DNA of 64,000 nt. Origin: Minisyncoccia bacterium. Its GTDB lineage: Bacteria > Patescibacteriota > Minisyncoccia > Phycocordibacterales > UBA9973. This document shows, one piece after another, positions 4,370 to 36,558 of this stretch. Both the position numbers and the translations under genes were made by a program. Where the stretch lies: contig JBGSSJ010000011.1 of the NCBI GenBank assembly GCA_041737125.1, positions 33,568 to 97,567 of the forward strand, read 5' to 3'. Numbering within the stretch: position 1 is the first letter of the stretch; every line of letters begins with the position of its first letter. Below the pieces are notes generated by a model that was not told where the DNA came from, did no database searches, and was given only the letters and a program-made list of their open reading frames with translations.

Positions 4370-5989
4370 ATGAGTAAATTAAAATACATTGCCCTCTTTA
4401 TCCTTTTAGGTTCTACTGGATTTGCTTTTGGTTATTTTGCATCACAAACTATGACAGATACAAATGTAAAGAATCAAAGAGCTCAAGTTATACAAGAAGA
4501 GGTAAAAATACCTGAGCCTCCAAAAATAACAAAAATATCTTTCGTAGGAGATATGATGTTTGATCGAAGTGTTCGCACATCAGTGAATAAAAACTTCAAA
4601 GGAGATTATAATGAACTCTTTATCCACCTCAAAGAACTTGCAAATTCAGATATATTATTTGGCAACTTAGAGGGCCCAGTATCTGATGTCGGTAACAATG
4701 TCGGTAGTAAATACTCTTTCCGTATGGATCCACTAGTCCCTTCTACACTAGTGAATGCAGGCTTTGACATAGTGTCATTTGCTAACAATCACGTCGGTGA
4801 CTGGAATGTAAAAGCATTTGAAGATACTTTAAAAAGATTAGGTGAAGTAAATTTGAAACAAACAGGAGCCGGTATGAACAAGACGGAAGCTGAACAAGTA
4901 ACAATAATAGAACGCAATGGAGTTAAATTCGGCTTTATCGGATTCTCTGATGTAGGACCGGCATGGATGGAAGCGAAGGAAAACAAGTCTGGTATACTGC
5001 TCGCCAATAATCCAAGATTTAAAGAAATAATAAGTAATGCAAAACAAAATGTAGATGTATTAATTGTATCTTTCCACTGGGGCGATGAATACAAAAAGAT
5101 TCACAATAAAAGACAGGAGACACTAGCACATAGTGCGGTAGATAGTGGCGCAGATATGGTCATCGGCCACCATCCTCATGTCATGCAAGATATAGAAGTA
5201 TACAATGGTGCACCTATTGTCTACTCACTTGGTAACTTTATATTTGATCAATACTTCTCTGTAGATACAATGCAAGGCATGCTATTTGAGGCGACATTCG
5301 AAGACAAAACTTTGAAAGATACAAAAAGTAGAATCATTACTCTCAATAAGAAGTACCAACCAGATGGTATTTATGAAAGTGTTGAAGAAGCCGCTCTCGC
5401 AAACGCTTGCCCGAAACCTACAAAGATATATGAGGATTATTCATACCTCGGTGTCGATCAAGGCGTAGCAATTCCTGACACAACATACACACCGTCTGAT
5501 TTGCGACCAGTAAAGAAAGATATATCTACTGGAAGTTTCTGTTTGAAGAAGGAAGCAGTGACAGCAATAGAAGAAATGTTTGCGGATGCAAAAATGGATG
5601 GCTATATGTTGAAAGTATCCTCTGGCTTTCGTGATTATGGAACACAAGTGACAATACTTAATAATAATCTAAAAAATACTAATCAAAATGTTTCGACTTC
5701 CGTTGCGAAAGCAGGCTACTCCGAGCACCAGCTAGGTACAGCAATTGATATAACTAGCCCCTCAGTGAACAATGCTGGTGCTTCGAAGATATTCGAAGGA
5801 ACGAAAGAGGCAGCGTGGCTTGAAACCAACGCCCATAAATATGGTTTCATCCAAAGCTATCCTAAAGGCAAAGAAGATATCACAGGCTACATATACGAAC
5901 CATGGCATTATAGATATGTAGGTAAAGACCACGCAGAAGCAATCACAAAAAGTGGCGAAACAATAAATCAATATTTAAAAAATCTATAA
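4370..5989 (+). CDS. membrane-anchored fusion: CapA/PgsA-type metallophosphatase domain + C-terminal M15 (VanY-like) D-Ala-D-Ala carboxypeptidase domain
   Basis: N-terminal TM; 'SFVGDMMFDR', 'FANNHVGDW', 'GHHPHV' (CapA/calcineurin-like); C-terminal 'SGFRDYGTQ', 'YSEHQLGTAIDI', 'EPWHYRYVG' (LAS/M15 zinc-peptidase motifs). Confidence 0.7.
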   Translation: MSKLKYIALFILLGSTGFAFGYFASQTMTDTNVKNQRAQVIQEEVKIPEPPKITKISFVGDMMFDRSVRTSVNKNFKGDYNELFIHLKELANSDILFGNLEGPVSDVGNNVGSKYSFRMDPLVPSTLVNAGFDIVSFANNHVGDWNVKAFEDTLKRLGEVNLKQTGAGMNKTEAEQVTIIERNGVKFGFIGFSDVGPAWMEAKENKSGILLANNPRFKEIISNAKQNVDVLIVSFHWGDEYKKIHNKRQETLAHSAVDSGADMVIGHHPHVMQDIEVYNGAPIVYSLGNFIFDQYFSVDTMQGMLFEATFEDKTLKDTKSRIITLNKKYQPDGIYESVEEAALANACPKPTKIYEDYSYLGVDQGVAIPDTTYTPSDLRPVKKDISTGSFCLKKEAVTAIEEMFADAKMDGYMLKVSSGFRDYGTQVTILNNNLKNTNQNVSTSVAKAGYSEHQLGTAIDITSPSVNNAGASKIFEGTKEAAWLETNAHKYGFIQSYPKGKEDITGYIYEPWHYRYVGKDHAEAITKSGETINQYLKNL

Positions 5990-23544: not shown

Positions 23545-26500
23545 TTAATATTCTGAGACTGTAGTATTATCAGTATTTTCTTCTATTATAAGTGGTGCTT
23601 CCACAGTTACTTTTGGGCTCGGAACAGGCGTACTCTCCTCTATTATAGGTGCGGGTTCATCTGGAGAAGTTACTTCCTCAATAATTATTTCCTCAGTTAC
23701 TATTTCGGGTACTAGTTCAGTAGAGGGATTTTCCGGTGATGGGACATCATCTTCTTGGGGTACTTGTTCTAGAGGAGCTTCTGTAGGTATTTCTATGTCG
23801 AGTCCTTCTACTAGACTCTCTACAATTTTAGGATCTTTTACGCCTAATGCTACCCAAGAGAAGCGTATATCCCGAGGTGCTTTCTTATTCAAGAATATTG
23901 TGAACCCTGTTTGATCTTTCTCTACCACTAGGTGGCGTACATCTTCGAAGAAGAATGCTTCAGCAGTGGCATCATCCATATTATCTGTAACCTCAAATGT
24001 AATATTTGTGGTTATCACAGGCGTGGTCACATAAGGCTCATCGAATACTACTCGCACTCGTCGGTCTTCCTCTTTTATAAGAGCAAAACCTGCTGTATCT
24101 TTGTTAAATATTGGTGGGATAGTGAACTCTGTCTGTGCACCGAAGACTACAGAGCCATCAAATGTAGTACTATTGGCAAAGAATGAAAGTCCACTAAACT
24201 GTGCTTTGCCTTCGAAAGTACTCTCTCCTGTTGCTTTGAAATTTGCTGTAGTTACTGATGTGAGTGCATCAAATGCATTTGCTCCGAGCAATGTTTCAAG
24301 TGCAGTGATTCGCTCAATCAGCGCATCAAAACCAGCAATTTTAGTAGCTTCAATTTCTTGTGCAGTAATTTTACCATTAAATACTGCATTTCCGAGTGCA
24401 TCAATAGTCATAACCGCAGCATCTTCACTATTTTTCTTTACAGAGAAGATTCCATTATTAAGAACAAGCGCGAGTGATCCATCTATTCCCCCAGTGAGCT
24501 GGCTTGTCACTACAGTATCAGCAATAAGTGTAGGTGTAAGAATTTCAAACCCAGCAGCAATTCTATCTGTGAAGAAGCTCTCTAGTGGAAGAGCGTTTGT
24601 CTCCTTGTCATCACGTGTTGCACGCAAGAATGACATGATAGACCATTGTGTTCCAAGCTCTGCTGTAAGTCCATCAACTGAAACATGGCCGTCTTCTATA
24701 GAACCATATTCTTGTGCAAGAATCTCTACATTTTGACCAAGTGATTCTCCAAGCCCAACAAAGAGCATAACATATCCGCACTGTATTCCTGTTGATGATT
24801 GCACTTGTTCTCCTTGCGCTTCACCTTCTACACGCTCTCCACCTACCCATGGACCTTCAGGAAGAGCAACATTTTCAAGTGCTGGAAGAGGGGCATCGCA
24901 TGAAGTCATTCCGTATGGCTCATTGAGTACACGACCTATCACTGCTCCGGCTGAAGTCGCGCGCATTGCATATCCTTCACGGGAAGACGAGGTGAGGAGG
25001 TCACCTACCTTTATAGGGCCATTTTCTGTCGTTACCTTAACAGGTACACGACCGGAGAGCGCAACAGCGTATGCATTTTCTGCTACAGGTCCTAAAATAA
25101 GTCCTGGTCGTGTGGAAATAACACCGAGCAGATTCTTTTGATACCTTCGAGAAGACTTACCAATTCCAGCTTCTTGACTTGGTTCAATGGAGACGACATC
25201 GCCTGCCTCAAGTGTTTCATTTGAGTAATAGTACTCAGCAAGGTCGGCTCCTTGACCGAGACCAAGCACATCTTGTGTGGCCCCAAAGAGACCACTAGCC
25301 ACCAAACTCATTCGAACATCCTCAAGAGCAAGGAGCGTATCTGCTTGGAGTTGTTTTATACTTACATCTTTTCTTTCTACTCTGATACCTGTACCAGTGG
25401 CAAACAAGATAGTATCCGTATATATAGCTATTGATTTTATGTCATCAGAACCAGTACCACTCCACGTAGTACCAAAATCATCTTCTTCAATACCAGAATC
25501 ACTACTATGCACTTCTGTTTTAATTCCTCCTGCCCCAGCATTTGTAAATGTTGAAATTCCTCCACCATCTGCCCCATCATCAGTACCAACATACAAACTA
25601 CGAGTCTTGTTAATTTGTGTAGGGGCATCAACAGCAATAGAGGTTACGTTATTTGTAGATCCATAGAGCTTAGAAGGAGAAACTCGGTAATCACTTGTTG
25701 CATCTGGTGTGACCGACCATGCAGGCGCCACAGTAAAGGCAGTTGCATCATTTGAAATAATATTTCTTGTTTGTCCAGCCCCAGTTCCTCCAGTGATTTC
25801 AACAACAAGCGAAGTAAATGAATTTGGAACATAGGTTGCAGTCGTACTTCCTATTGTCGTTCCACTGAAAATATCAGCATTCTCAACGGAGGTTTGTGGT
25901 CGTATGAGATGTGTTCGTCCATCAAGGAAGCGTCTATTTGCAGAAGCAGAAACGGTACCTGAAGATGTCGTTGCACCTGCACTCCACGTGAATTCATCAA
26001 TTTCTCCATCCCAGAAACTATCCCCTGTGGCGCAGTTAGCCCCAGTACATCGGCCACCAATGGTGAGCACTTGTGCTGCGTCAAGTGTTGCTGTTGCTGC
26101 AAGAGCTGTATCACACGCAGCTGCCAAGCGTCCGTCTATATACATACATAAGTCTGTGTCAGTATTCGTAAGCAAGAAATGATGCCACTGACCATCGTTC
26201 CATGTTCCAGAAGAAGTCAAACCGTCATCCATCGACAAAGTTCCCACAGTTGTCCATGTCCCATCATCATCAATACCTGCAGTGATAGTTCCTGTAGTTG
26301 TCATACCAGCATAGATACAAGCGGCAGCTGTAGGAGTTGCAGGAGTATAACATCGCTCAAAGAGCACATCAGCTGCTGCGGTCGTTGAATGTTTAAACCA
26401 AAGCGAAACCGTAAAGGAAGTTGCTGCAACGTTGTTGTCTGTATCACTGTCACACGTGCCGTCCGCATTGGCATCACTACAGAGGTACGAGTTATTATTG

Positions 26501-29500
26501 AAATTCACTGACCCTCCTCGAATACCATTACCTCCAAATGTTGGTGCTGTTGCGCCTGCTTGGTCAAGTGGATTTCTGGTCGTCCCCGTATTTCCAACCG
26601 CACTATTTGTAGATGTCGCACCTACTGCATCATCAAAAAGGTACGCTGAACGGACTCCTCCATTCATATACGGAGTTGCACTATCCTTCGTTGTGATCTT
26701 TGACCATGAGGCATTCGCAAGTGCACCTCCTGATGTGTGCACTTCTGCAAGACCTTGGTTTGTACCGACAAACACAATATCACCTGAGTCAATCTGTCCC
26801 GCTGCAGCAGCTTCCCTTGCAGCAGAACCACGCTCAATCACTGCAAGAGCGCTCGGTGAAGTCGAAATAGTGGGAACAGCCCCCTCAAGTGTAATCGGCG
26901 TATTCCCGGCGAGTGTTTCGTCATACCATCGTGTAGGAGTTCCGTTTGCCTGTGTTGTTATCACCGTATCTACTCCGCGCCATTCTTCAAGTTGAGCGCG
27001 CGTTTCATTCGTCGCATACATACGACCACGCTTAGTCATGTACACCTGATTGTAGTCATCATTTGTTGCATCAGAATAGTTGATGACCTTTCGTGCTCCC
27101 ATATTGATAACAGACACTCCAGAGTCAGTAGCAGCTGCAATAATAGTGACTCCAAGCATTGGTCCTCCTTGAGAATCAACTGGCGCAATAAGTGTACCCG
27201 CTCTTCCTTCCATGGATCCAGTCTGAACATTTACTGACACATCATTGACTGTGTTGTTGATAATAGCAAAACCTGTCTCTGCATTAGCAGCATACGTGGC
27301 AGTTGAATTTCGATTGCCAATATTTATATCTGCTTGAGTCCTGTTTGTAGTGTTATATCTATATAGAACATCTTGTTTAAAATCAAATGCATATAAACCT
27401 GTAGCAGAAGCCCCGTTTGTACCAACATAAATAACACCATTTTGAGCAGTTACTCCAGAGGGGTTGTTGTTAGTATCTGCACCGAGTGCATAGGTGCCCG
27501 CTTGAGTAAACTTCATCCAAAGTGAATTATCAGCACTGTCAAATATATACAGTCCATCAGCAGTCGTAGCAATAATAGCCTTACGAGGAAAGGCTGAACT
27601 TCCACAACGATCATCAGTTGAGATACTACATGCATCTCCTGCCCCATCGTCTTTAGCCTCAGTTGCCCAAGATCTTTGCATCATCTCTAGAGAGTTACGC
27701 CACTCACCTGCATCAACATCAACAGATGTATCGTATATAAATGTATCTATAACCCCAGTGAGACTCCGTGCAATAGTTCCCCCTTTTACAATAAGGTCTC
27801 CATATACAAGTGCATTACCACGACTTATAGCGGTACCGACTTGGAAAATATCGTTGGTTGTTGAAGATCCATCAGAGAGAACAAGTGTTCCGTTATCTGC
27901 AAGTGTCATTTGTGGAGTTGCATCAATAAATCTGATGTCGCTATCCCATCCAGAACCAATCACAAGTGCATTCTCTGTTGCTGCAGTACCTGTGATGTTT
28001 GCGATATTTAAACCATTAAATGTCTCATCACCTGATGGTGTGTTTACTGGAATGAGTGTAATGTTGAGTCCTGAGTTTGTGTTTGTTGTTCCGTTTCCGA
28101 CTTCCATTGCAATAGAGAGCCCATCGACTCCGTCAGTGACTATCCCTGTTGTTCCACCAGTTAAATTTACTACCATCGAGTCGGCGGTAGGTATAACATT
28201 GTTCGCAGTGTTCTGTATAGTGATAGAGCCCAAGGTTGAAGTGTTGCCGGAACTATCTATCTGGAAGAGGTCACCGTTACCAACAGTAAAGAGTGATGCG
28301 GGTGATGCATCTCCGATACCGACGTTACCATTATTAAAAATAAAACCATTACTAGGACTATCACCATTTACTGCTAAATACACACTAGAACCATTACCAC
28401 TAAAATCACCTATGTAAACATTATCTAAGGCTTCAAGATAAATATTTCCACTGGACGCTCCATTCGTAACGTCTAAAATACCTCTAGGAGCTATAGTTCC
28501 TATACCTACCCTCCCGCCCATATCTGGCACCAACAAGGCATAATTATCCGTCCCTCCTGTTGCACTTGCATATAACGCTACATTAGTAGATGACGTTCCT
28601 GTTTTAACATTGGTAAAATAACCACCATAGGTCGTTTGAGTTGAAGTAGCGTTTGCACCCGACTGTGCGACTTCAAATATTTTCTGTGCATTTGATGCTG
28701 CAGCAGTAGAAGTAGACGAGAGTTTGAGTCCTGTTGCGCCCGCGAGTGTATTCCATTGCCATTCTTGAGTGTAGTCCGCATTGTTGATAGTGTTGGTAGC
28801 TCCTGCTGCAGAGAGACTAGAAAGTGCAACCGCTCCTCCACAAGAAGCAACTGAAAGCGTTCCTGATCCGTTTGACTGGAGACATCCAGATGCATCTGCA
28901 GCAGGAAGAGTCCATGTGTATGACGCAGTAACAGCAGCGGGAGCTTGGAGTGCTGCAAAGTCTGTCCCTCCTCCTGTTTCGACAAATCGCAAATCAGCCC
29001 CTGCAAAGAGTGATGTGTTCCCTGATCCATCTACTTGGAAGAGGTCGCCGGAGCCGACAGTGAAGAGTGAAGCGGGTGATGTGTCTCCAATCCCCACATT
29101 CCCACTATTAAGTATCCTCATCGCTTCAGTGGCTCCGTTGTTCCCCGTCTGGAAAATAATATCTGCACCTGTTGTTCCCACTCCTGAAGTTGAGCGAAGC
29201 GTTAGTGGAGATGTAGTAGTGGTACCTCCGATAACAAGTGGTGTGGTGATGTCTGTGGTGAATGTTGGAGATGTAGAGAAGACAGCAAGGCCAGAACCAG
29301 TTTCGTCTGTGAGAGCGCTTGCTAAGTTTGCAGATGACGGAGTAGAGAGCCATGTAGAAATTCCACTACCGAGTGTGGTTACAGAAAGTGCACCTGTTCC
29401 TCCTGATGTAGTAACAAATCCATTCGTAGAAAGTCCTGAGAATGTGATACTACCACTTGATGTGATACCTGTGGCTGCAATAATTGCTCCTGTACTATCT

Positions 29501-32500
29501 ACTTGAAATTGAGATGTGGAGCCGACGGTGAACGCTGAGTCAGGTGTGACATCTCCGATACCCAGATTTGCTGCTTCATTCCTAAAATAACTATTACCGT
29601 TTGCATTCAAAACAATTACAGCAACTCCATTTCTTTGAATATCAATACGACCTTGATCTGAGTTTCCATTATAAAGCCTGACTACTCTTCGTGATGAGTT
29701 TGCCCCTTCGACATACAATTCACTCCCTTTAGAAAGTCTGACATTGCCTCCCACATCAAGTTTCTCTGCAGGTGAAAGACCAATACCGACGTTTCCACTA
29801 TTAAGTATCCTCATCGCTTCCGTCGCTCCATTGTTCCCTGTTTGGAAAATAATATTTGCACCTGTTGTTCCCACTCCTGAAGTTGAGCGAAGTGTCAGTG
29901 GTGATGTTGTAGTTGTTCCTCCGATAATAAGTGGAGTGGTGATGTCTGTGGTGAAGGTTGGAGATGTAGAGAAGACAGCAAGGCCAGAACCAGTTTCGTC
30001 TGTGAGTGATCCTGCAAGGTCTGCAGAGGTGAATGATCCTGTCGCTGTACCATAAAGTGTACCTGATGTTGGGAGCGTAACATTTGTTGTACCTGTAGAG
30101 GTAAATGTAGTATTAAATGCACCAGAGGTAGTGAGCGCTCCTCCGAGGGTAATTATTTTACCTGCACTATTGTTCACACCGGTACCTCCGTTTGTTGGAG
30201 AGAGAAGTCCAGAGACAGCAGACGACGAAGCGATGTTGATAGCTCCAAATGCAAGTGCAGTACCTCCCCCATTAAGACGAAGGACTTGGTTCCCTGTACC
30301 TACGATATCAGCTACATCTCCTGTTGTGTTTGTTTCTCTACCGATGACTGATACTCCTGCAGACTGTCTCAATTTCCCGTCAGTAACAGTATTTGCATCG
30401 ATAGTCATTACTGTTCCTGTTCCTGATACTGTTATATCGCCGTAATCAAGATCAGAGAGCCCACCACTCACCGCGCTCCAGCTTCCATCTCCCCTTAGGA
30501 ACGTTGATGCACTAGGTGTCCCCGTGATAGCTGATGCAAAGATAGGAAGTGTGTTTGATGCAATCTTTTCAAAAACGCCAGTTCCAGTATTACGAGTGAT
30601 GAGATCGTATGAGCCTGCTGAAGTTGTAGGTGTTGTGGAGAGCGTGAGAGTTCCGGATGATGTGATACCTGTGGCTGCTGTAATAGCACCACCAGAAGTG
30701 ACTTGGAATTGTGCAGCAGAGCCTACGTTGAATAATGAAGTTGAAGTAGTAGAACCAATAGTGACATTACCACTTGCCTCAATTCTCATTTTTTCACTTC
30801 GCGTAGTAGAGTTATTCGCAGTTGTCTCAAATCGGAGACTTGTTCCATATGCAGAACCATCACTCCACGCTTGAGAAGTATATGCAGCAATACCAGCAGT
30901 AGAGCGCAGTGGTTGTGCCCCCGAAGAAGACCCTCCAAACAATACGCCCCCCAATCGATCAAGTGAAGACATTGCTCCCCCGTCATTACTATAGAGCCCT
31001 ATGAGTGCGCCAGCAAAAGCACCTGATGCGCCTCTACTCTCACCGGCAAACACAAGACCTGACGTAGCCCCGCTGGACGAAACAGATACAGATTCAGTCC
31101 CCACAACAGAATCGAACGATGAGTGTGTTGCACCGAGCGTTAGTTTGGATACAGGACTTGCTGTCCCTAATCCCAACCTATCATTCGTATCATCCCAAAA
31201 GAAATTCGCATTGTCTTGAACGATTGTTGTACCGTTTGAGAATAGTACTGAACCGGTAGTTAGTGATGGAAGTGTGAACTTTGCATTGATTTGTGATTGT
31301 ATTCCTGAAGTCACCCCTTTGACATATGATATTTCTGTGAGTGATGGATATGTTACAGTTGCAAGTGAACCTAGAGTATTTGTTCCACTCCAGTAGGTCA
31401 GTTCGTTTGCAACCCCTGTACCAACGGAGGTGAGGTATGTACTTGAATCTAGTGATCCATCACCTTTAATAAAGTCTGTACTGGCACCTATACCAGTGGA
31501 AGTTAAGTTCTTGGATGCATCAGTGAATACAACCTTTGATGCTGTGAGGCCAGAGAAGTTGATGGTTCCTGATGATGTGATACCGGTAGCCGCGGCGATG
31601 GCACCGGAGGAGTTGACTTGGAAGAGGTCGCCAGAGCCGACAGTGAGCATCGCTGCAGGAGTAGTGTCGCCAATACCAACGTTACCATCACCACCTATTC
31701 TCATTCTTTCTCCATCTCCAGCACGGAACTGAAGAAAACTTGTCGCATCAGCAGTACCTGAACCATTTCCAGAAACAGAAGTATAACCAGAGTTCGTGCC
31801 GAAATATAAATTCTGGTTAAACCCAACACCTACAGATCCGGTAAATGTACCCGCACCAGTAACAGTAAGCGGAAAAGTCGGCGTGTTCGTCCCGATACCG
31901 ACGTTTCCAGCATTTACAATGAGCCCATAGTTAGCAGTTGTAGCTCCTGATGCATCTAAGTAGAGAGCTACGTTTGTACCTGAGGTAGCATTTGTTTTCG
32001 TGTTTGATATTTGCGCACCGTACGTAGTGATAGCATTCGTAGATGTTGCACCGGAAGTGAGGATATTCAAACCAGTTTGTGACGCGCCTGCGTCGGTGCC
32101 TGAGATTTGAATATCAATTAATCTTCCCGATGTAAGACTTGATGAAGCAAGATATGCACCAGTACCTGTAGTAAGGGAGTTGAAGTTTCCTACTAATGCT
32201 GATGCTGTGGTAGCTTGGGTAGTGTTTGCTGAAGTAAGTGCAATTGTGCCTGTAGTAGTGAGTCCCGTTGCTGCCACAATAGCACCGGTCGAGTTCACCT
32301 GAAATGCATCACCTGAGCCCACAGTAAGCATGGACGCTGGTGATGGGTCACCGATACCCAAAGATGCTGCAGCGTTTACAAAATAGCTATCTCCACTTGC
32401 ATTAAGTCGGATATTAACAGCTCCGTCTCTTTGGATATCAATCATTCCTTGACTCAACCCTCCACTGTTATACAAACGAACAGCGCGTCGTGCAGGAATA

Positions 32501-33294
32501 GTCCCCTCGATATAAAGCTCACTTCCTGGAGAAAGTCTGACATTCCCCCCGACATCAAGTGTCTCTGATGGTGATGAAGCAACGTTAACTCCCAATCTGT
32601 TTGTTGAATCATCCCAAAAGAAGTTTGCATTATCTTGTGCAATGGTACTGCCATCAGAGAAGAGGACTGATCCTGAAGTTAGTGATGGAAGTGTGAACTT
32701 TGCATTGATTTGTGATTGTATTCCTGAAGTCACCCCTTTGACATAAGAAATTTCTGTGAGTGATGGATAGGTTGCAGTTGCAAGAGAAGAGAGAGCACCT
32801 GGACCCGAGAAGTATGCAAGCTCATTCGTAGTACCTGAGCCAGATAAACTTCCACAAGCCCCCCATGATGGAGCAGATCCAGTATTACCGATAAGACACT
32901 CACCAGTAATACCTGCAGCAGTGACTCCCATAGCGGAAGTACCGTTACCGTAAATAATTCCGTTGGAAGTAAATGTCCCTGCACCAGTTCCTCCTTGAGC
33001 TACAGTCACAAGTGCATTCGTAGTGAGGATGGTCGCATTCGCATCAGGGAAAGTATAAGTACGGACTCCTGTCTGGTTGTTGGTAACAGCGAAAACTCCA
33101 TCTCCAAGCTCTGCCCATGGGTGGCCTGGGTTCGGTGTCGCTCCACTTACTATTCCGAAAATAGAAAAGGCAACAAAGATAGAAAGTATCGTATACACGA
33201 CATAGTGTATAGAAAATTTAGGAGCAATTTTCCTTAAAATTCTTTGTACGAAATTTGAAATTTGTTGCTTGTAATTTTTAAACATAAAATACAA
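23545..33294 (-). CDS. giant (3249 aa) N-terminally TM-anchored surface protein: tail-fibre-like Gly/Thr/Ser repeat modules, LamG domain, C-terminal lectin-like domain and Pro/Glu-rich tail
   Basis: single uninterrupted ORF; N-terminal TM 'YVVYTILSIFVAFSIFGIVSG'; recurrent 'GNVGIGxxxPxxxLTVGSGDxFQVxSxGAI' modules; LamG 'FTVSLWFKHS...MYIDGRL...WDGEIDEF' (~25960-26420); C-terminal 'RVRVVFDEPYVTTPVITTNITF...FSWVALG' (~23830-24130). Confidence 0.8.
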   Translation of the reverse strand: MYFMFKNYKQQISNFVQRILRKIAPKFSIHYVVYTILSIFVAFSIFGIVSGATPNPGHPWAELGDGVFAVTNNQTGVRTYTFPDANATILTTNALVTVAQGGTGAGTFTSNGIIYGNGTSAMGVTAAGITGECLIGNTGSAPSWGACGSLSGSGTTNELAYFSGPGALSSLATATYPSLTEISYVKGVTSGIQSQINAKFTLPSLTSGSVLFSDGSTIAQDNANFFWDDSTNRLGVNVASSPSETLDVGGNVRLSPGSELYIEGTIPARRAVRLYNSGGLSQGMIDIQRDGAVNIRLNASGDSYFVNAAASLGIGDPSPASMLTVGSGDAFQVNSTGAIVAATGLTTTGTIALTSANTTQATTASALVGNFNSLTTGTGAYLASSSLTSGRLIDIQISGTDAGASQTGLNILTSGATSTNAITTYGAQISNTKTNATSGTNVALYLDASGATTANYGLIVNAGNVGIGTNTPTFPLTVTGAGTFTGSVGVGFNQNLYFGTNSGYTSVSGNGSGTADATSFLQFRAGDGERMRIGGDGNVGIGDTTPAAMLTVGSGDLFQVNSSGAIAAATGITSSGTINFSGLTASKVVFTDASKNLTSTGIGASTDFIKGDGSLDSSTYLTSVGTGVANELTYWSGTNTLGSLATVTYPSLTEISYVKGVTSGIQSQINAKFTLPSLTTGSVLFSNGTTIVQDNANFFWDDTNDRLGLGTASPVSKLTLGATHSSFDSVVGTESVSVSSSGATSGLVFAGESRGASGAFAGALIGLYSNDGGAMSSLDRLGGVLFGGSSSGAQPLRSTAGIAAYTSQAWSDGSAYGTSLRFETTANNSTTRSEKMRIEASGNVTIGSTTSTSLFNVGSAAQFQVTSGGAITAATGITSSGTLTLSTTPTTSAGSYDLITRNTGTGVFEKIASNTLPIFASAITGTPSASTFLRGDGSWSAVSGGLSDLDYGDITVSGTGTVMTIDANTVTDGKLRQSAGVSVIGRETNTTGDVADIVGTGNQVLRLNGGGTALAFGAINIASSSAVSGLLSPTNGGTGVNNSAGKIITLGGALTTSGAFNTTFTSTGTTNVTLPTSGTLYGTATGSFTSADLAGSLTDETGSGLAVFSTSPTFTTDITTPLIIGGTTTTSPLTLRSTSGVGTTGANIIFQTGNNGATEAMRILNSGNVGIGLSPAEKLDVGGNVRLSKGSELYVEGANSSRRVVRLYNGNSDQGRIDIQRNGVAVIVLNANGNSYFRNEAANLGIGDVTPDSAFTVGSTSQFQVDSTGAIIAATGITSSGSITFSGLSTNGFVTTSGGTGALSVTTLGSGISTWLSTPSSANLASALTDETGSGLAVFSTSPTFTTDITTPLVIGGTTTTSPLTLRSTSGVGTTGADIIFQTGNNGATEAMRILNSGNVGIGDTSPASLFTVGSGDLFQVDGSGNTSLFAGADLRFVETGGGTDFAALQAPAAVTASYTWTLPAADASGCLQSNGSGTLSVASCGGAVALSSLSAAGATNTINNADYTQEWQWNTLAGATGLKLSSTSTAAASNAQKIFEVAQSGANATSTQTTYGGYFTNVKTGTSSTNVALYASATGGTDNYALLVPDMGGRVGIGTIAPRGILDVTNGASSGNIYLEALDNVYIGDFSGNGSSVYLAVNGDSPSNGFIFNNGNVGIGDASPASLFTVGNGDLFQIDSSGNTSTLGSITIQNTANNVIPTADSMVVNLTGGTTGIVTDGVDGLSIAMEVGNGTTNTNSGLNITLIPVNTPSGDETFNGLNIANITGTAATENALVIGSGWDSDIRFIDATPQMTLADNGTLVLSDGSSTTNDIFQVGTAISRGNALVYGDLIVKGGTIARSLTGVIDTFIYDTSVDVDAGEWRNSLEMMQRSWATEAKDDGAGDACSISTDDRCGSSAFPRKAIIATTADGLYIFDSADNSLWMKFTQAGTYALGADTNNNPSGVTAQNGVIYVGTNGASATGLYAFDFKQDVLYRYNTTNRTQADINIGNRNSTATYAANAETGFAIINNTVNDVSVNVQTGSMEGRAGTLIAPVDSQGGPMLGVTIIAAATDSGVSVINMGARKVINYSDATNDDYNQVYMTKRGRMYATNETRAQLEEWRGVDTVITTQANGTPTRWYDETLAGNTPITLEGAVPTISTSPSALAVIERGSAAREAAAAGQIDSGDIVFVGTNQGLAEVHTSGGALANASWSKITTKDSATPYMNGGVRSAYLFDDAVGATSTNSAVGNTGTTRNPLDQAGATAPTFGGNGIRGGSVNFNNNSYLCSDANADGTCDSDTDNNVAATSFTVSLWFKHSTTAAADVLFERCYTPATPTAAACIYAGMTTTGTITAGIDDDGTWTTVGTLSMDDGLTSSGTWNDGQWHHFLLTNTDTDLCMYIDGRLAAACDTALAATATLDAAQVLTIGGRCTGANCATGDSFWDGEIDEFTWSAGATTSSGTVSASANRRFLDGRTHLIRPQTSVENADIFSGTTIGSTTATYVPNSFTSLVVEITGGTGAGQTRNIISNDATAFTVAPAWSVTPDATSDYRVSPSKLYGSTNNVTSIAVDAPTQINKTRSLYVGTDDGADGGGISTFTNAGAGGIKTEVHSSDSGIEEDDFGTTWSGTGSDDIKSIAIYTDTILFATGTGIRVERKDVSIKQLQADTLLALEDVRMSLVASGLFGATQDVLGLGQGADLAEYYYSNETLEAGDVVSIEPSQEAGIGKSSRRYQKNLLGVISTRPGLILGPVAENAYAVALSGRVPVKVTTENGPIKVGDLLTSSSREGYAMRATSAGAVIGRVLNEPYGMTSCDAPLPALENVALPEGPWVGGERVEGEAQGEQVQSSTGIQCGYVMLFVGLGESLGQNVEILAQEYGSIEDGHVSVDGLTAELGTQWSIMSFLRATRDDKETNALPLESFFTDRIAAGFEILTPTLIADTVVTSQLTGGIDGSLALVLNNGIFSVKKNSEDAAVMTIDALGNAVFNGKITAQEIEATKIAGFDALIERITALETLLGANAFDALTSVTTANFKATGESTFEGKAQFSGLSFFANSTTFDGSVVFGAQTEFTIPPIFNKDTAGFALIKEEDRRVRVVFDEPYVTTPVITTNITFEVTDNMDDATAEAFFFEDVRHLVVEKDQTGFTIFLNKKAPRDIRFSWVALGVKDPKIVESLVEGLDIEIPTEAPLEQVPQEDDVPSPENPSTELVPEIVTEEIIIEEVTSPDEPAPIIEESTPVPSPKVTVEAPLIIEENTDNTTVSEY
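29095..29335. repeat. ~235-bp intragenic direct repeat, copy 1 (copy 2 at ~29755-29995, ~90% identical)
   Basis: encodes duplicated block 'LTDETGSGLAVFSTSPTFTTDITTPLIIGGTTTTSPLTLRSTSGVGTTGA(N/D)IIFQTGNNGATEAMRILNSGNVGIG'. Confidence 0.8.
31262..31326. repeat. 65-bp 100%-identical intragenic repeat (second copy 32681-32745) within ~230-bp diverged repeats
   Basis: agtgatggaagtgtgaactttgcattgatttgtgattgtattcctgaagtcacccctttgacata in both places; encodes 'SYVKGVTSGIQSQINAKFTLPSLT'. Confidence 0.85.
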
Positions 33295-33404: not shown

Positions 33405-35303
33405 CTAGCGGACTTCATACCCTAGAGACGCTATTTTCTCTGTAATTTTAGACATTATCATATTCACTTCTTCGGTCTCTAGAGTGCGGTCATATGACTG
33501 GAAAATCAATCGATAAGCATAAGATATTTTACCATTTTTCTTGAACATATCCAAGAGTTTTGGCTCCCCTTGTAGCAATTCTGTGCCGAATTCCGTATAA
33601 ACCTGTGAAAGCACACTACTTTCGACATCTTCAGGCACCCAAACAGCAATATCACGCACCATAAATGGATAAAGTGACCACATTTTGAAATACGAAATGT
33701 CTGTAGTCGTGGAGTCAGGAAGTGAAGCAAGAAGTTCGTTATGAGAGCCTTGCGCAGAGCTGGCTCGAGCAGAGAAATTTCCCTCCAAGGAAATATTCGT
33801 GCTCCCAGAAGGAAGCTCCTCCGAAGCATTATCTCGAATAAATTCATCTAAACTCATTTCTTTCATTTCTTTTTTATTTACGAATGCGATATTTAGGAAC
33901 TCTTCCCCATTTTTAAATACCGTCCCAATTTCAAAAATTTTAATTTCATCATGGCCTAGGAATTGAGAATTTAATTTATTTAATTCATATGCATTTCGAA
34001 GTCCATCACTTAGATTCGTGCGCATGAAATTCTTATCACTAGCAGAGGCAAGTACTTCCACTTCACCTTTTTCTGTGAATGCATAAGTCATCACTTCCCT
34101 GTAACCACTCTCTACCAGGTAATTGCGAGCCTTTTTTATATTCTCATAAACAGGATTCTCTTTAGGAGTAAAGTTTATCTTTGGCAATTGTGGAATTACT
34201 TTATCGTAGCCGATTATGCGGCCAATTTCTTCTGCTATGTCGCTAGTATTTGTAAGATCTAGTCGCATAGGTGGCACCTCGAGAGTAAAGTTATTACCAT
34301 CTTTCTTATAAGTGAAATTATACCTCTTCAATATGTCTTCTACCTCCTCACCTGTTATACTTATACCTAGTATTTTGTTTATATTTTCCAAGGTAAAATC
34401 CACTTTTACTTCTTTTTGTAAATCTTTATTCGGGTATATATCCACCACATCTTCAAATGTTGCTTCCGGGCAAATTTCAGCTATCAATCCTGAAAGTTCA
34501 AGCATAGCAAAGTCACAAAGTGAGGGCGATAAATCATTCTCAAATCTTTTCGCTGAATCAGAAAGAAGTCCTAATCTGCGCGCAGTTTTCCGGACAGATG
34601 TCGGATCGAAATTCGCAACTTCAAGCACTATGTCAGTCGTCCCATCCGTAATTCCAGAATCAAGTCCACCTTTGACTCCGCCAAGTGCTAAAATTTTCTC
34701 ACCACTAGTTATAGTCAAATCATTTTCCTTTAACTTCGCAAGTATCCCTTCTCTGCCTACGACTTTCAATTCCTCTCCCTCTTTAGCATTAGTAATTCGT
34801 AATTCGTAATTCGTAATTTTCCCTAAATCAAATGCGTGTGTCGGCTGACCACAGTCATACATCACAATATTTGTCGCATCAACAATATTATTTATACTTC
34901 TCTGTCCTATGTTCTCTAAATATTCTACTACCCACTTTGGTGATGGACCTATCTTTATATTACGGACAATTCTCGCAGAATATCTACGGCAACTCGGTGA
35001 ATTAATTTCTACTTTTAGGTCAGTCGTTACGGATGGAGGAACCTTGTACATGGAAGTAGGGTCCTTAAAAGTTAACTCCAAAAGCCCCGCAAGCTCACGA
35101 GCAACACCCTGGTGTGATAGCAAATCATGAGCCCGATTCGGTAATATACCCAAGTCATAAATCCAATCTTTCTTGCCATCTATACTTTCAATAGCAGTAA
35201 CACTTTCAACTTCACAAAGATGATAAGTAAAAATACTCTCTAGATGATGAGGTTCAGGGATATCAGATATATATGATTCTAGCCAATTGTAAGAAATAAA
35301 CAT
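33405..35303 (-). CDS. pheT: phenylalanyl-tRNA synthetase beta subunit, short form (632 aa)
   Basis: 'MFISYNWLESYI...' N-terminus, B3/4 and B5 regions, C-terminal anticodon-binding-like domain. Confidence 0.85.
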   Translation of the reverse strand: MFISYNWLESYISDIPEPHHLESIFTYHLCEVESVTAIESIDGKKDWIYDLGILPNRAHDLLSHQGVARELAGLLELTFKDPTSMYKVPPSVTTDLKVEINSPSCRRYSARIVRNIKIGPSPKWVVEYLENIGQRSINNIVDATNIVMYDCGQPTHAFDLGKITNYELRITNAKEGEELKVVGREGILAKLKENDLTITSGEKILALGGVKGGLDSGITDGTTDIVLEVANFDPTSVRKTARRLGLLSDSAKRFENDLSPSLCDFAMLELSGLIAEICPEATFEDVVDIYPNKDLQKEVKVDFTLENINKILGISITGEEVEDILKRYNFTYKKDGNNFTLEVPPMRLDLTNTSDIAEEIGRIIGYDKVIPQLPKINFTPKENPVYENIKKARNYLVESGYREVMTYAFTEKGEVEVLASASDKNFMRTNLSDGLRNAYELNKLNSQFLGHDEIKIFEIGTVFKNGEEFLNIAFVNKKEMKEMSLDEFIRDNASEELPSGSTNISLEGNFSARASSAQGSHNELLASLPDSTTTDISYFKMWSLYPFMVRDIAVWVPEDVESSVLSQVYTEFGTELLQGEPKLLDMFKKNGKISYAYRLIFQSYDRTLETEEVNMIMSKITEKIASLGYEVR

Positions 35304-35340
35304 AGTTATAAAGTTATAAAGTTATAAAGTTGAAAGTAAT
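35304..35340. repeat. left inverted-repeat arm (GTTATAAA x3) flanking four-helix-bundle pseudogene
   Basis: aGTTATAAAGTTATAAAGTTATAAAGTTgaaagtaat; reverse-complement of right arm (35685-35730) contains GTTATAAAGT twice. Confidence 0.6.
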
Positions 35341-35684
35341 TCATAGGGTTTTGATAAATCCAGAAAGTATTCTTGAAATTTCTAATGATAATTTTTCTAA
35401 TTCGGAATATTTATTTTGATCTATATATTTTAAATCTACAGCTAAGCCTAACATTGATCTTACTTCTCCACAAGAACCTTTTGAAATATATAAAAATTCT
35501 TTAATTCTTTATTTGTTTGCCTTTCAAATCCTTCAGCAATATTATTCATAATAGAAACTGAAGCCCTTTCTATCTGATTTTTAAAAGAAAAGTCTTTACA
35601 TTGATTAAATGTTTTGTAAATTATCAAAGTTAATTCTTTTGATTTTTTCCAAGCTATTATGTCTTCAAATTTTTCAACTTTCAT
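35341..35684 (-). pseudogene. frameshifted 'four-helix-bundle protein' (TIGR02436 / 23S rRNA intervening-sequence protein family)
   Basis: frame 1 (35684..35460) 'EDIIAWKKSKELTLIIYKTF...ERASVSIMNNIAEGFERQTNKELKNFYI'; family C-terminus continues in another frame ('YISKGSCGEVRSMLGLAVDLKYIDQNKYSELEKLSLEISRILSGFIKTL*' to 35341); single missing T in run 'gaatttttatat' (~35493-35498) would restore ~114-aa protein. Confidence 0.7.
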
Positions 35685-35730
35685 AAAAACTTTATAACTT
35701 TTAACTTTTAACTTTCTACTTTATAACTCC
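35685..35730. repeat. right inverted-repeat arm flanking four-helix-bundle pseudogene
   Basis: aaaaACTTTATAACttttaacttttaactttctACTTTATAACtcc. Confidence 0.6.
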
Positions 35731-36558
35731 TTAGAATTGATTAATTCTAAGGTCTCCTTGGTAAAATAATCGCACGTCAGGAATATTCCAGCGAATCATC
35801 GCTATACGATCTACTCCTCCACCGAACGCAAAGCCTTGTACTTTCTCAGGATCTAGTCCTGCATTACGCAGAACATTCGGATGTAGCATTCCTCCACCCA
35901 TCATTTCGAGCCACCTACCGTTGAACTTCGCATGTACTTCTACAGAAGGCTCAGTGAATGGGAAGAAGCTGGGACGGAACTCTATTTCTACATCAGGACC
36001 AAGTGCTTTCTTGTAGAATTCTATAAGCACTGCTTTCATATGTGAAAGATTTACATTCTCCCCAACCATGCATCCATCTATCTGATAGAATTGCATTTCA
36101 TGAGTTATGTCTGTAGCTTCATTACGGAAAACTTTCCCGACTGTGATAGAAGCAATTTCTTTCAACCCTTCATCTACCATTCTTTTAAGTGTACGCGCTG
36201 TCACATTCGTCGCGTGAGTACGTAGCACATGGGCGGAGTCGGAAGTTGGATACGAAATAGTCTGGCCGAGCGTATTCGCGAGGAGATCCGAGGACTTTTC
36301 GGAGACTACTTCCGACGAAGCATTAACATTCTTAATATAGAAAGTATCCTGCATGTCGCGAGCAGGGTGATCTTTAGGTACATTTAGGGCGTCGAAGTTA
36401 TACCAAAGAGTTTCAAGTTCTGGGCCTGTAGCTACCTCAAAACCGAGCTTTGAGAATACTTCATAGGCCTCATCTTGTAATATAGTAAGTGGGTGCAACC
36501 CGCCTGCCACGCTATGCGTAACATTTCGGGCAGGGCTTCCTTTAGAATCTTTAGACAT
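35731..36558 (-). CDS. pheS: phenylalanyl-tRNA synthetase alpha subunit, short form (275 aa, catalytic core only)
   Basis: class II motifs; '[13 protein letters not shown]', '[19 protein letters not shown]', '[13 protein letters not shown]'. Confidence 0.85.

Follow-up and report, generated by a model that had tools for sequence, protein, structure and literature searches.

rRNA intervening sequences (IVSs) and the S23p/PF05635 open reading frames (ORFs) associated with them have been known since about 1990. This report concerns a 427-bp cassette built along similar lines that lies between pheS and pheT, at positions 35304 to 35730 of a 64,000-nucleotide stretch (hereafter, the window) of contig JBGSSJ010000011.1 from a Minisyncoccia bacterium. 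In Coxiella burnetii, the IVS is 428 nt long, has a 28-bp stem, contains an ORF for S23p, and is cut out by RNase III; the ORF is decaying, in what has been termed reductive evolution, and the origin, mobility, and function of IVSs are called unclear (PMC4990558). The window cassette resembles these IVSs in its PF05635 protein, its size (427 bp versus 428 nt in Coxiella), and the ~28- to 34-bp stem around the ORF, as well as in a sporadic distribution and a decaying ORF; rRNA IVSs are regarded as selfish (PMC4990558). It differs from them in that it sits between pheS and pheT and not in the tip of a 23S rRNA helix (9, 25, or 45), and possibly in the build of its arms, which are arrays of tandem 7- to 8-nt units. 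By analogy, the cassette would work like the ORF-containing rRNA IVSs and is evidently related to them, but it lacks their defining location and we do not classify it as an rRNA IVS.

The other close parallel is with the STRR (short tandemly repeated repetitive) elements of cyanobacteria, ~7-nt tandem units in intergenic or intercistronic spacers that are able to form hairpins, e.g., between hupS and hupL, for which a role in translational coupling or transcript stability has been suggested (PMC2670836). STRRs are also mentioned, by way of a citation of Vioque 1997 in PMC2858038, as occurring inside the RNase P RNA gene. Unlike the cassette, however, STRRs have been described without an associated gene, and their unit sequences differ from the AAAGT-type units found here; the likeness is one of layout.

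Our analyses indicate that 35304-35730 is probably a decaying IVS-type selfish cassette in which a promoterless PF05635 gene, enclosed by inverted arrays of AAAGT-type repeats, occupies the pheS|pheT junction. The cassette belongs to a stereotyped family, present across phyla, that fills the spacers between co-directional genes.

A cassette inserted between pheS and pheT

On the minus strand, the window carries pheS, a spacer of 427 bp, and pheT, in that order. The first-pass annotation, drawn up from the letters of this stretch, had described the spacer as bounded by inverted repeats at both ends and as holding a frameshifted gene of the four-helix-bundle family (TIGR02436-like). All the elements of that description were recovered at 35304-35730, including both repeat arms:

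35731-36558, minus strand: pheS (275 aa), upstream host gene; its homologs carry PF01409
35689-35727, minus strand: 5' arm, GTTATAAA GTAGAAA GTTAAAA GTTAAAA GTTATAAA GT; five units
35460-35684, minus strand: 74-aa ORF with the N-terminal part of the PF05635 gene; ATG at 35684-35682, premature TAA at 35462-35460
35492-35496, minus strand: frameshift site, T5 (A5 on the plus strand); one extra T gives AAT TTT TTA (N-F-L)
35341-35496, minus strand: C-terminal part of the PF05635 gene, LYISKGSCGEVRSML...ILSGFIKTL, ending in TGA at 35341-35343; -1 frame relative to the N-terminal part
35304-35337, minus strand: 3' arm, ACTTTCA ACTTTATA ACTTTATA ACTTTATA AC; four units
33405-35303, minus strand: pheT (632 aa), downstream host gene; identity from the Pfam content of syntenic loci

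The relatives with the most similar PheS and the same gene order (UvrD/PD-(D/E)XK helicase, pheS, pheT, giant gene) carry no cassette. In one of them (L005; loci from other genomes are numbered with the prefix L), whose PheS is 86% identical, the junction is empty and reads TAA TTT ATG, with a 3-nt gap; in L006/L007 (PheS 84% identical by alignment, 81% in the search table), 13 nt separate stop from start. The filled window junction reads TAA GGA [arm...ORF...arm] T ATG. The annotation's premise that pheS and pheT are normally adjacent thus holds, and because the two closest same-order relatives have these genes 3 to 13 nt apart, sequence comparison identifies 35304-35730 as an insertion relative to them. 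The G+C content of the cassette, 22.7%, is the minimum among all 427-bp stretches of the window (mean, 39.6%).

A cassette occupies the same junction in two more distant lineages, L003 (PheT 54% identical) and L008 (51%). Its presence at pheS|pheT in three lineages means that the cassette was either lost once, precisely, in the L005/L006 branch or gained repeatedly at this one site. The nearest relative of the cassette protein itself (89% identical) is found at another junction in another organism, between the split halves of a transketolase gene (L001/L002). At the nucleotide level, the last 60 codons of the window pheS are closer to L003 (0.82 to 0.83) than to L005 (0.78), and the last 60 nt show the same trend (0.92 versus 0.78), whereas the whole gene gives the reverse order. 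This segment includes an additional hairpin:

35729-35752, minus strand: hairpin at the pheS 3' end, perfect 10-bp stem CCTTAGAATT/AATTCTAAGG with a 4-nt loop, formed by the last pheS codons plus the GG after the stop

The hairpin is common to the window and the cassette-bearing L003, with identical synonymous codons (CTT AGA), and is absent from the empty sites of L005 and L006. The local similarity to L003 could mean that the cassette was cotransferred with its flank or that the extra hairpin is under selection, the evidence for either being weak.

The PF05635 gene and its frameshift

Insertion of one T at the T5 run yields a full-length protein of 114 aa. The frame-corrected protein scored 117 bits against PF05635 (cutoff, 33.8), over model positions 1-106 of 106, and 113.2 bits against TIGR02436 (cutoff, 24), by which the cassette protein is a bona fide member of PF05635/TIGR02436, the family annotated as 23S rRNA intervening-sequence protein or four helix bundle protein. 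These profile matches confirm the proposed gene family, while translation of 35304-35730 reproduced the break at the T5 run, with 74 aa in one frame, a second frame ending at 35341, and restoration by a single T. In its -1 frame, the conserved C terminus reads LYISKGSCGEV...ILSGFIKTL, followed by the stop. The 74-aa product is the form given in the public record.

Across 82 family sequences from several phyla, with a median isoelectric point (pI) of ~9, the motifs FEDiiaWQK, QI.RA.vSiMNNIAEGFER, and KGScgEVRSML are near-invariant. PF05635 is described as having the conserved motif GxxRxxxSxxxNxxEG (Zhang & Ye 2013) and a homopentameric four-helix-bundle structure. The core of the motif, QIERASVSIMNNIAEGFER, is present in the window protein and near-invariant in the 82 relatives, and the leading G of the consensus is absent from this subfamily, which varies at that position (N in the window). 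Of the solved structures, the nearest are 2GSC and 2RLD, each deposited with five chains. The ratio of nonsynonymous to synonymous substitutions (dN/dS) of the window copy is 0.06 versus L001 and 0.13 versus L003, with a dS of ~1, which argues for purifying selection and for no recent transfer among these three copies. Substitution patterns of this kind indicate that the PF05635 family is under strong purifying selection.

The frameshift in the window copy removes the half of the protein that contains the invariant KGSCGEVRSML. While the cassette ORF holds five homopolymer runs of at least 5 bases, none of 220 such runs in the 56.4 kb of the other long ORFs of the window is broken, which under a uniform error model puts the probability of a sequencing error below ~7% as an upper bound. 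In relatives, the T run is replaced by AAC TTT CTT, AAC TTC CTA, or AAT TTT ATG. Other copies are inactivated as well: one by an in-frame TAA, likewise at pheS|pheT (L008, 2501-2845), two by frameshifts (L141, 9632-9975; L195, 4202-4586), and one by truncation (L097, 6140-6418). Of the readings initially offered for the break, decay is therefore favored by the intact state of the other runs and the dead copies elsewhere. The lack of conservation of the T run among relatives makes phase variation or programmed frameshifting unlikely. A one-base deletion in a T6 run, as a real inactivating mutation, is most likely. Constraint at the level of the family combined with frequent decay of single copies is the pattern expected of a selfish element, and matches the reductive evolution of the Coxiella S23p ORF (PMC4990558).

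Repeat arms of the window cassette

The arm units are 7 to 8 nt long, of AAAGT type, and form inverted arrays at both ends of the cassette. The 5' arm starts 3 nt past the pheS stop codon and ends 4 nt ahead of the cassette ATG; the 3' arm ends 1 nt ahead of the pheT start codon (35303-35301). The arms pair in both the minimum free energy (MFE) and the centroid folds of the window copy, with a stem of ~30 to 34 bp. Arm boundaries were set by motif, and those given by the outermost MFE pairs were discarded, since the fold runs helices into the coding flanks.

GTTATAAAGT occurs 7 times in the window versus 0.23 expected, five times at the cassette and twice as single copies within genes. The latter two matches fall within coding sequence, as do two further AAGT arrays of the window, and all of these seem to be chance occurrences. 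The cassette is the only instance of these repeats in the window. The possibility that the terminal repeats are AT-rich noise, raised at the outset as a potential objection, hence does not hold for the window; it is in other genomes that the repeats proved common without the gene, as hairpins and solo arrays (see below).

A stereotyped cassette family across phyla

The cassette protein has 6848 homologs, the top ones being 114 aa long and 70 to 89% identical. A family scan using one genome per species gave at least 485 relatives, of which the best 80 (59 to 75% identity) span Patescibacteria, Bacteroidota, Ignavibacteriae, Omnitrophota, Marinimicrobia, and others. Nearly throughout, in more than 80 loci, the layout is the same: upstream stop, AAGT units, ORF, ACTT units, downstream start. 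Counts over 83 loci averaged 4.6 AAGT-core units for the 90 nt that precede the ATG and 4.6 ACTT-core units past the stop, compared with 0.46 for the background. The stop codon mostly falls within the first 3' unit (ACT TTA TAA). Median spacings to the neighboring genes are 5 nt between the upstream stop and the 5' arm and 15 nt between the 3' arm and the downstream start. Of 74 loci, 63 have both neighbors in the orientation of the gene, and none has both opposed. Besides pheS|pheT (L003, L008), the junctions occupied include rhodanese|PheRS-like gene (L004; PheRS, phenylalanyl-tRNA synthetase) and tRNA-Val|tRNA-Met (L025).

The flavor of the arm unit is lineage specific (GTTATAAA, GTCCATAAA, GGTGAAAG, GGGATTA, and others), and the two arms of a locus match each other above permuted partners (z = 12.7 to 13; 0 of 20,000 permutations). 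At least 15 long-range terminal-helix pairs are formed in 88% of 78 loci (median, 32.5). Distant PF05635 genes on Nostoc and Trichormus plasmids are likewise flanked by inverted heptamers (GGGAAAA/CCCTTTT, TCAGGAG/CTCCTGA). Distant carriers from cultured organisms, whose arrays of other 7-nt units resemble the STRR heptamers of cyanobacteria, include the following:

L209: Nostoc sp. ATCC 53789, pNsp_c
L210: Riemerella anatipestifer, plasmid (AAGGTTY units); junction with an iron-sulfur accessory gene
L211: N. punctiforme, pNPUN01
L212: T. variabilis, plasmid C
L213: Anabaena sp. 90, pANA02

The Anabaena sp. 90 copy lies between cas6 and cas4; four-helix-bundle genes inside cas operons had been noted earlier (PMC3936711), as had PF05635-type genes in 16S and 23S rRNA insertions of the candidate phyla radiation (CPR) (10.1101/2024.02.27.582315). 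Scans of viral contigs and of a phage collection gave no relatives of the protein and hence no support for a phage vector. Overall, the empty sites in the closest relatives, the aberrant G+C content, and the occurrence of the same cassette at many unrelated junctions support the suggestion of the first-pass annotation that the spacer holds a small mobile or selfish insertion.

PF05635 genes were also seen in clusters, with two in tandem in L031 (1996-2725), two 1.6 kb apart in L073 (1521-3478), and three within 12.6 kb in L166 (29-9840).

ORF-less hairpins, solo arrays, and 23S rRNA sites

A metagenome scan for ACTTTATAACTTTATAACTTTA gave 120 loci totaling 691 kb. A PF05635-like ORF is present in 12 of them, two of these 12 being frameshifted. 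A further 23 hairpins, in 21 of the loci, consist of an AAGT array, a 4- to 68-nt loop, and an ACTT array and have no ORF, and 152 arrays, most of them in short spacers that adjoin start codons, count as unpaired when a strict criterion is applied. The idea that the arm motif is exclusive to PF05635 cassettes was rejected on account of these ORF-less hairpins and solo arrays. The flanks of the cassette-bearing loci contain 16 further arrays per 100 kb versus ~0.8 in shuffles, many of them ORF-less hairpins that share the unit flavor of the cassette arms of the same locus.

One of the arm-motif loci, L119, carries four ORF-less AAGT/ACTT hairpins inside a single 23S rRNA gene (minus strand; 1228 bits), which are listed here with their positions on an alignment to E. 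coli rrlH:

L119 873-947, 1950-2028, 2982-3057, and 3660-3750, in a 23S rRNA gene on the minus strand: ORF-less hairpins, at E. coli 130-178, just past 546, near 1170-1190, and 1854-1932

These positions correspond approximately to helices 9, 25, and 45, the canonical IVS sites, plus one further site. A second 23S rRNA fragment, in L151, has one such hairpin near helix 25 (428-515). The hairpins of L119 and L151 are ORF-less IVSs whose repeats are those of the window arms. The link to 23S rRNA IVSs, proposed initially from the protein family, therefore extends to the arm repeats, and the cassette is tied to classical IVSs via its arms as well as its protein.

Many solo arrays of the same 8-nt unit, up to 22 units long, with neither an inverted partner nor a gene nearby, were observed among the arm-motif loci (L088-L207), e.g., at L090 242-287, L118 2592-2673, L136 1866-2627, and L158 370-477. 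They occupy short intergenic spacers, often directly against start codons and in either orientation, and are candidates for scars, expansions, or targets.

Proposed mechanism and evidence against it

The cassette shows no excess of promoter-like sites and no terminator was found in it. Because it appears to have neither a promoter nor a terminator of its own, it would be transcribed together with pheS-pheT. In the transcript, the arms are predicted to pair into a helix of ~30 to 34 bp (~-30 kcal/mol) that would bring the pheS stop, 3 nt off the helix, next to the pheT start, 1 nt off it. By analogy with rRNA IVSs, this helix is probably an RNase III substrate, such that the insert is cut out of or insulated from the host RNA; alternatively, the helix may preserve the coupling of the flanking cistrons, as suggested for the STRR hairpins between hupS and hupL. 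Either role would account for the tolerance of insertions at the tips of rRNA helices, in spacers between tRNA genes, and in tight operons. As to movement, the protein may recognize the arrays while host factors do the chemistry, or spread may occur via recombination between dispersed hairpins.

A number of observations weigh against this interpretation. The ten neighboring ORFs scanned (21084-44076, reaching out ~14 kb on the side of pheT and 8 kb on that of pheS) gave no match to a transposase, integrase, or reverse transcriptase, although a factor encoded elsewhere in the genome might act in trans. Comparison of the filled window site with the empty L005/L006 sites shows no target-site duplication, and it is the distribution that points to active mobility. 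Presence at pheS|pheT in the window, L003, and L008 could be due to old vertical inheritance with a single loss. The co-orientation of neighbors (85%) is only moderately informative, its baseline being high in compact genomes, and composition and lineage controls (z = 3 to 8) explain part of the similarity between arms of the same locus. A sequencing error at the T run is possible, with a small probability that stays under the bound given by the uniform error model. Regarding an RNA stem, the fold of the whole cassette does not exceed shuffles in stability (z = -0.5); the arm duplex of the window is more stable in antisense (-37.7 kcal/mol) than in sense (-30.5 kcal/mol); across loci, sense and antisense duplexes are equally stable (-33.2 versus -32.7 kcal/mol; P = 0.63); and G.U-type and A.C-type arm mismatches are equally frequent (73 versus 73), giving no signal of selection on the sense-strand RNA.

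Because the mismatch types are equal and the sense and antisense duplexes equally stable, arm complementarity is strand symmetric, which fits a DNA-level feature at least as well as an RNA stem. Such a feature might consist of inverted arrays of protein-binding motifs, as at the multisite ends of certain transposons, or result from hairpin-templated homogenization. Strand-symmetric arms and ORF-less derivatives would together fit a DNA-level system of autonomous and nonautonomous elements, with a pentameric protein recognizing the repeats.

Alternative explanations

Could the insert simply be an ordinary, fixed accessory gene of the pheST operon, with the hairpin acting as a host stability or coupling element and the frameshift being an assembly error? 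Occupation of the same junction in the window, L003, and L008 would agree with a long vertical residence, strong purifying selection acts on the protein, intercistronic STRR hairpins have been proposed to serve coupling or stability (PMC2670836), and the scanned neighbors encode no mobility enzyme. We nonetheless regard this explanation as improbable: the closest relatives are without the cassette, its G+C content is the window minimum, its closest protein relative (89%) is at a different junction in another organism, more than 80 loci with 59 to 75% identity are at unrelated junctions across phyla, several copies are pseudogenes, and no other homopolymer is broken in 56 kb of ORFs. Somewhat less improbable, though still unlikely, is that the hairpins are the primary, independent element (MITE- or STRR-like, or a host structure; MITE, miniature inverted-repeat transposable element) and the PF05635 gene a passenger or parasite of hairpin loops. 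That the gene is found in just 12 of the 120 arm-motif loci, as opposed to 23 ORF-less hairpins and 152 unpaired arrays, speaks for it, as do the ORF-less hairpins at 23S rRNA IVS sites and the fact that rRNA IVSs take the place of helix tetraloops (PMC4990558). However, in most copies the last three codons plus stop (ACT TTA TAA; GAC TCC TGA in Nostoc) form the first 3'-arm unit, and since they do, ORF and arms are physically integrated, their flavor changing together between distant lineages; nor do the empty pheS|pheT sites of L005 and L006 show any preexisting hairpin.

Two further explanations concern the gene only. The T5 run might serve as a programmed -1 frameshift site, a transcriptional slippage site, or a phase-variation switch for the full-length protein, given that a -1 slip on A AUU UUU A leaves tRNA-Phe able to re-pair and that the -1 shift gives exactly the conserved protein. 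Yet the run is just 5 nt long, the site is replaced in relatives by the alternative codons given above, the best 120 of the 6848 homologs are all single-frame (~114 aa), a stimulatory structure is not evident, though no search was aimed at one, and other copies are broken elsewhere in the gene, so that we give this idea very little credence. Still more far-fetched would be an avd accessory gene, or remnant, of a diversity-generating retroelement (DGR). PF05635 is homologous to Avd, and weak matches to bAvd (PF22296, 23.8 bits) and DivGenRetAVD (NF033474, 21.9 bits) were obtained; these scores are, however, far below the cutoffs (40 and 80, respectively), the ten scanned ORFs include no reverse transcriptase, no reverse transcriptase Pfam family occurs among the called genes of L001-L004, and the neighbors are housekeeping genes with no template/variable repeats seen. 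An integron cassette was also considered and rejected, with no attC-like single hairpin after the ORF and no integrase among the scanned neighbors.

Comparison with other repeat-flanked elements

In REPIN/RAYT systems (repetitive extragenic palindromic [REP] doublets forming hairpins and REP-associated tyrosine transposases), a gene is flanked by inverted copies of a repeat of which many ORF-less doublets are found in intergenic regions. The window cassette resembles these systems, as well as pairs of MITEs and autonomous elements, in having a gene flanked by inverted repeats together with dispersed ORF-less hairpin doublets, and MITE-type terminal inverted repeats are present, strand-symmetrically, at both its ends. 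It differs in that no HUH or DDE transposase and no target-site duplication was found among the scanned neighbors and sites, its ORF encodes a 114-aa four-helix bundle without known catalytic activity, and its termini are arrays of short units, not a single REP.

The Correia elements of Neisseria (CREE, Correia repeat enclosed elements; NEMIS, Neisseria miniature insertion sequences) are small inverted-repeat elements that lie in transcribed intergenic regions, are cotranscribed, and form a hairpin that is cut by RNase III. They are confined to Neisseria, contain no ORF, and are marked by one 26-bp terminal inverted repeat and by duplication of a TA target, whereas the window cassette carries an ORF, has arms of repeated short units, and belongs to a family present in many phyla.

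Avd is a pentameric, basic four-helix bundle that binds structured RNA and a reverse transcriptase (10.1101/2023.10.23.563531, PMC10053308). The cassette family has a homologous four-helix-bundle fold and a similarly high pI (~9), but scores below the Avd cutoffs and has neither a reverse transcriptase nor template/variable repeats near the cassette.

A possible extended class of hairpin elements

In the open-access literature, we found nothing on the repeat sequences themselves, arms made of repeat arrays, a stop-start habitat, ORF-less hairpin relatives, or a link between STRRs and PF05635. The cassette type is thus apparently an undescribed, very widespread relative of rRNA IVSs. What gives it interest is the family, more than the one copy studied here, which is probably dead. 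Outside rRNA, the ORF-plus-stem module abounds, inserted where one gene of an essential operon stops and the next starts. Taken with the repeat-array architecture common to many phyla and the ORF-less relatives at rRNA IVS sites, this recasts IVSs as one habitat of a general element family of transcribed spacers and ties unexplained STRR-like tandem-repeat hairpins to a specific protein family. In practical terms, the family explains the presence of genes annotated as "four helix bundle protein" in operons for cas and aminoacyl-tRNA synthetase genes, among others, and Riemerella anatipestifer and Nostoc punctiforme are identified as culturable carriers.

We also put forward, much more tentatively, that PF05635 proteins might be the element-encoded factor of a very large, unrecognized class of hairpin-type mobile elements that end in inverted arrays of 7- to 9-nt units, which the pentameric protein would recognize, and that colonize transcribed spacers, with ORF-less IVS hairpins, intercistronic hairpins, and possibly STRRs as their nonautonomous derivatives or scars. 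The habitats of such a class may comprise rRNA helix tips, tRNA spacers, and operon stop-start junctions in Patescibacteria, Bacteroidota, Cyanobacteria, and others. If this were true, the origin of IVSs and that of STRRs, puzzles more than 30 years old, would share one answer.

Host and neighboring genes

The homologs of PheS and of the cassette protein come from Parcubacteria, Paceibacterota, and Nomurabacteria, identifying the host as a member of the Patescibacteria/CPR. No rRNA is present in the window, and Rfam searches gave nothing at the cassette at the gathering threshold or at E <= 1, the sole match being a chance one to Lnt. The neighbors include the UvrD/PD-(D/E)XK helicase, PheS, PheT, a giant Laminin_G_3 protein, and an ABC transporter. 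PheS (275 aa) and PheT (632 aa) fall well below the lengths usual for these enzymes in bacteria, as would fit a reduced CPR genome, and the window PheS has a ~15-aa N-terminal extension compared with its closest relatives (260 aa). In L004, the gene downstream of the cassette (4401-5543) encodes a 380-aa PheRS-like protein with tRNA-synt_2d and FDX-ACB domains, a single-chain architecture that recalls mitochondrial PheRS, unlike the usual bacterial alpha/beta pair.

Another arm-motif locus, L180 (5686-8238), contains a 16S rRNA gene with large insertions of the kind typical of CPR rRNA: ~150 nt are added within E. coli positions 63-240 and ~1.3 kb within 799-857. Directly downstream of pheT, the window carries a 3249-aa ORF (23545-33294, minus strand) whose sole Pfam match is Laminin_G_3; a giant gene also lies downstream of pheT in the relative L006, and the product is presumably a CPR surface protein.

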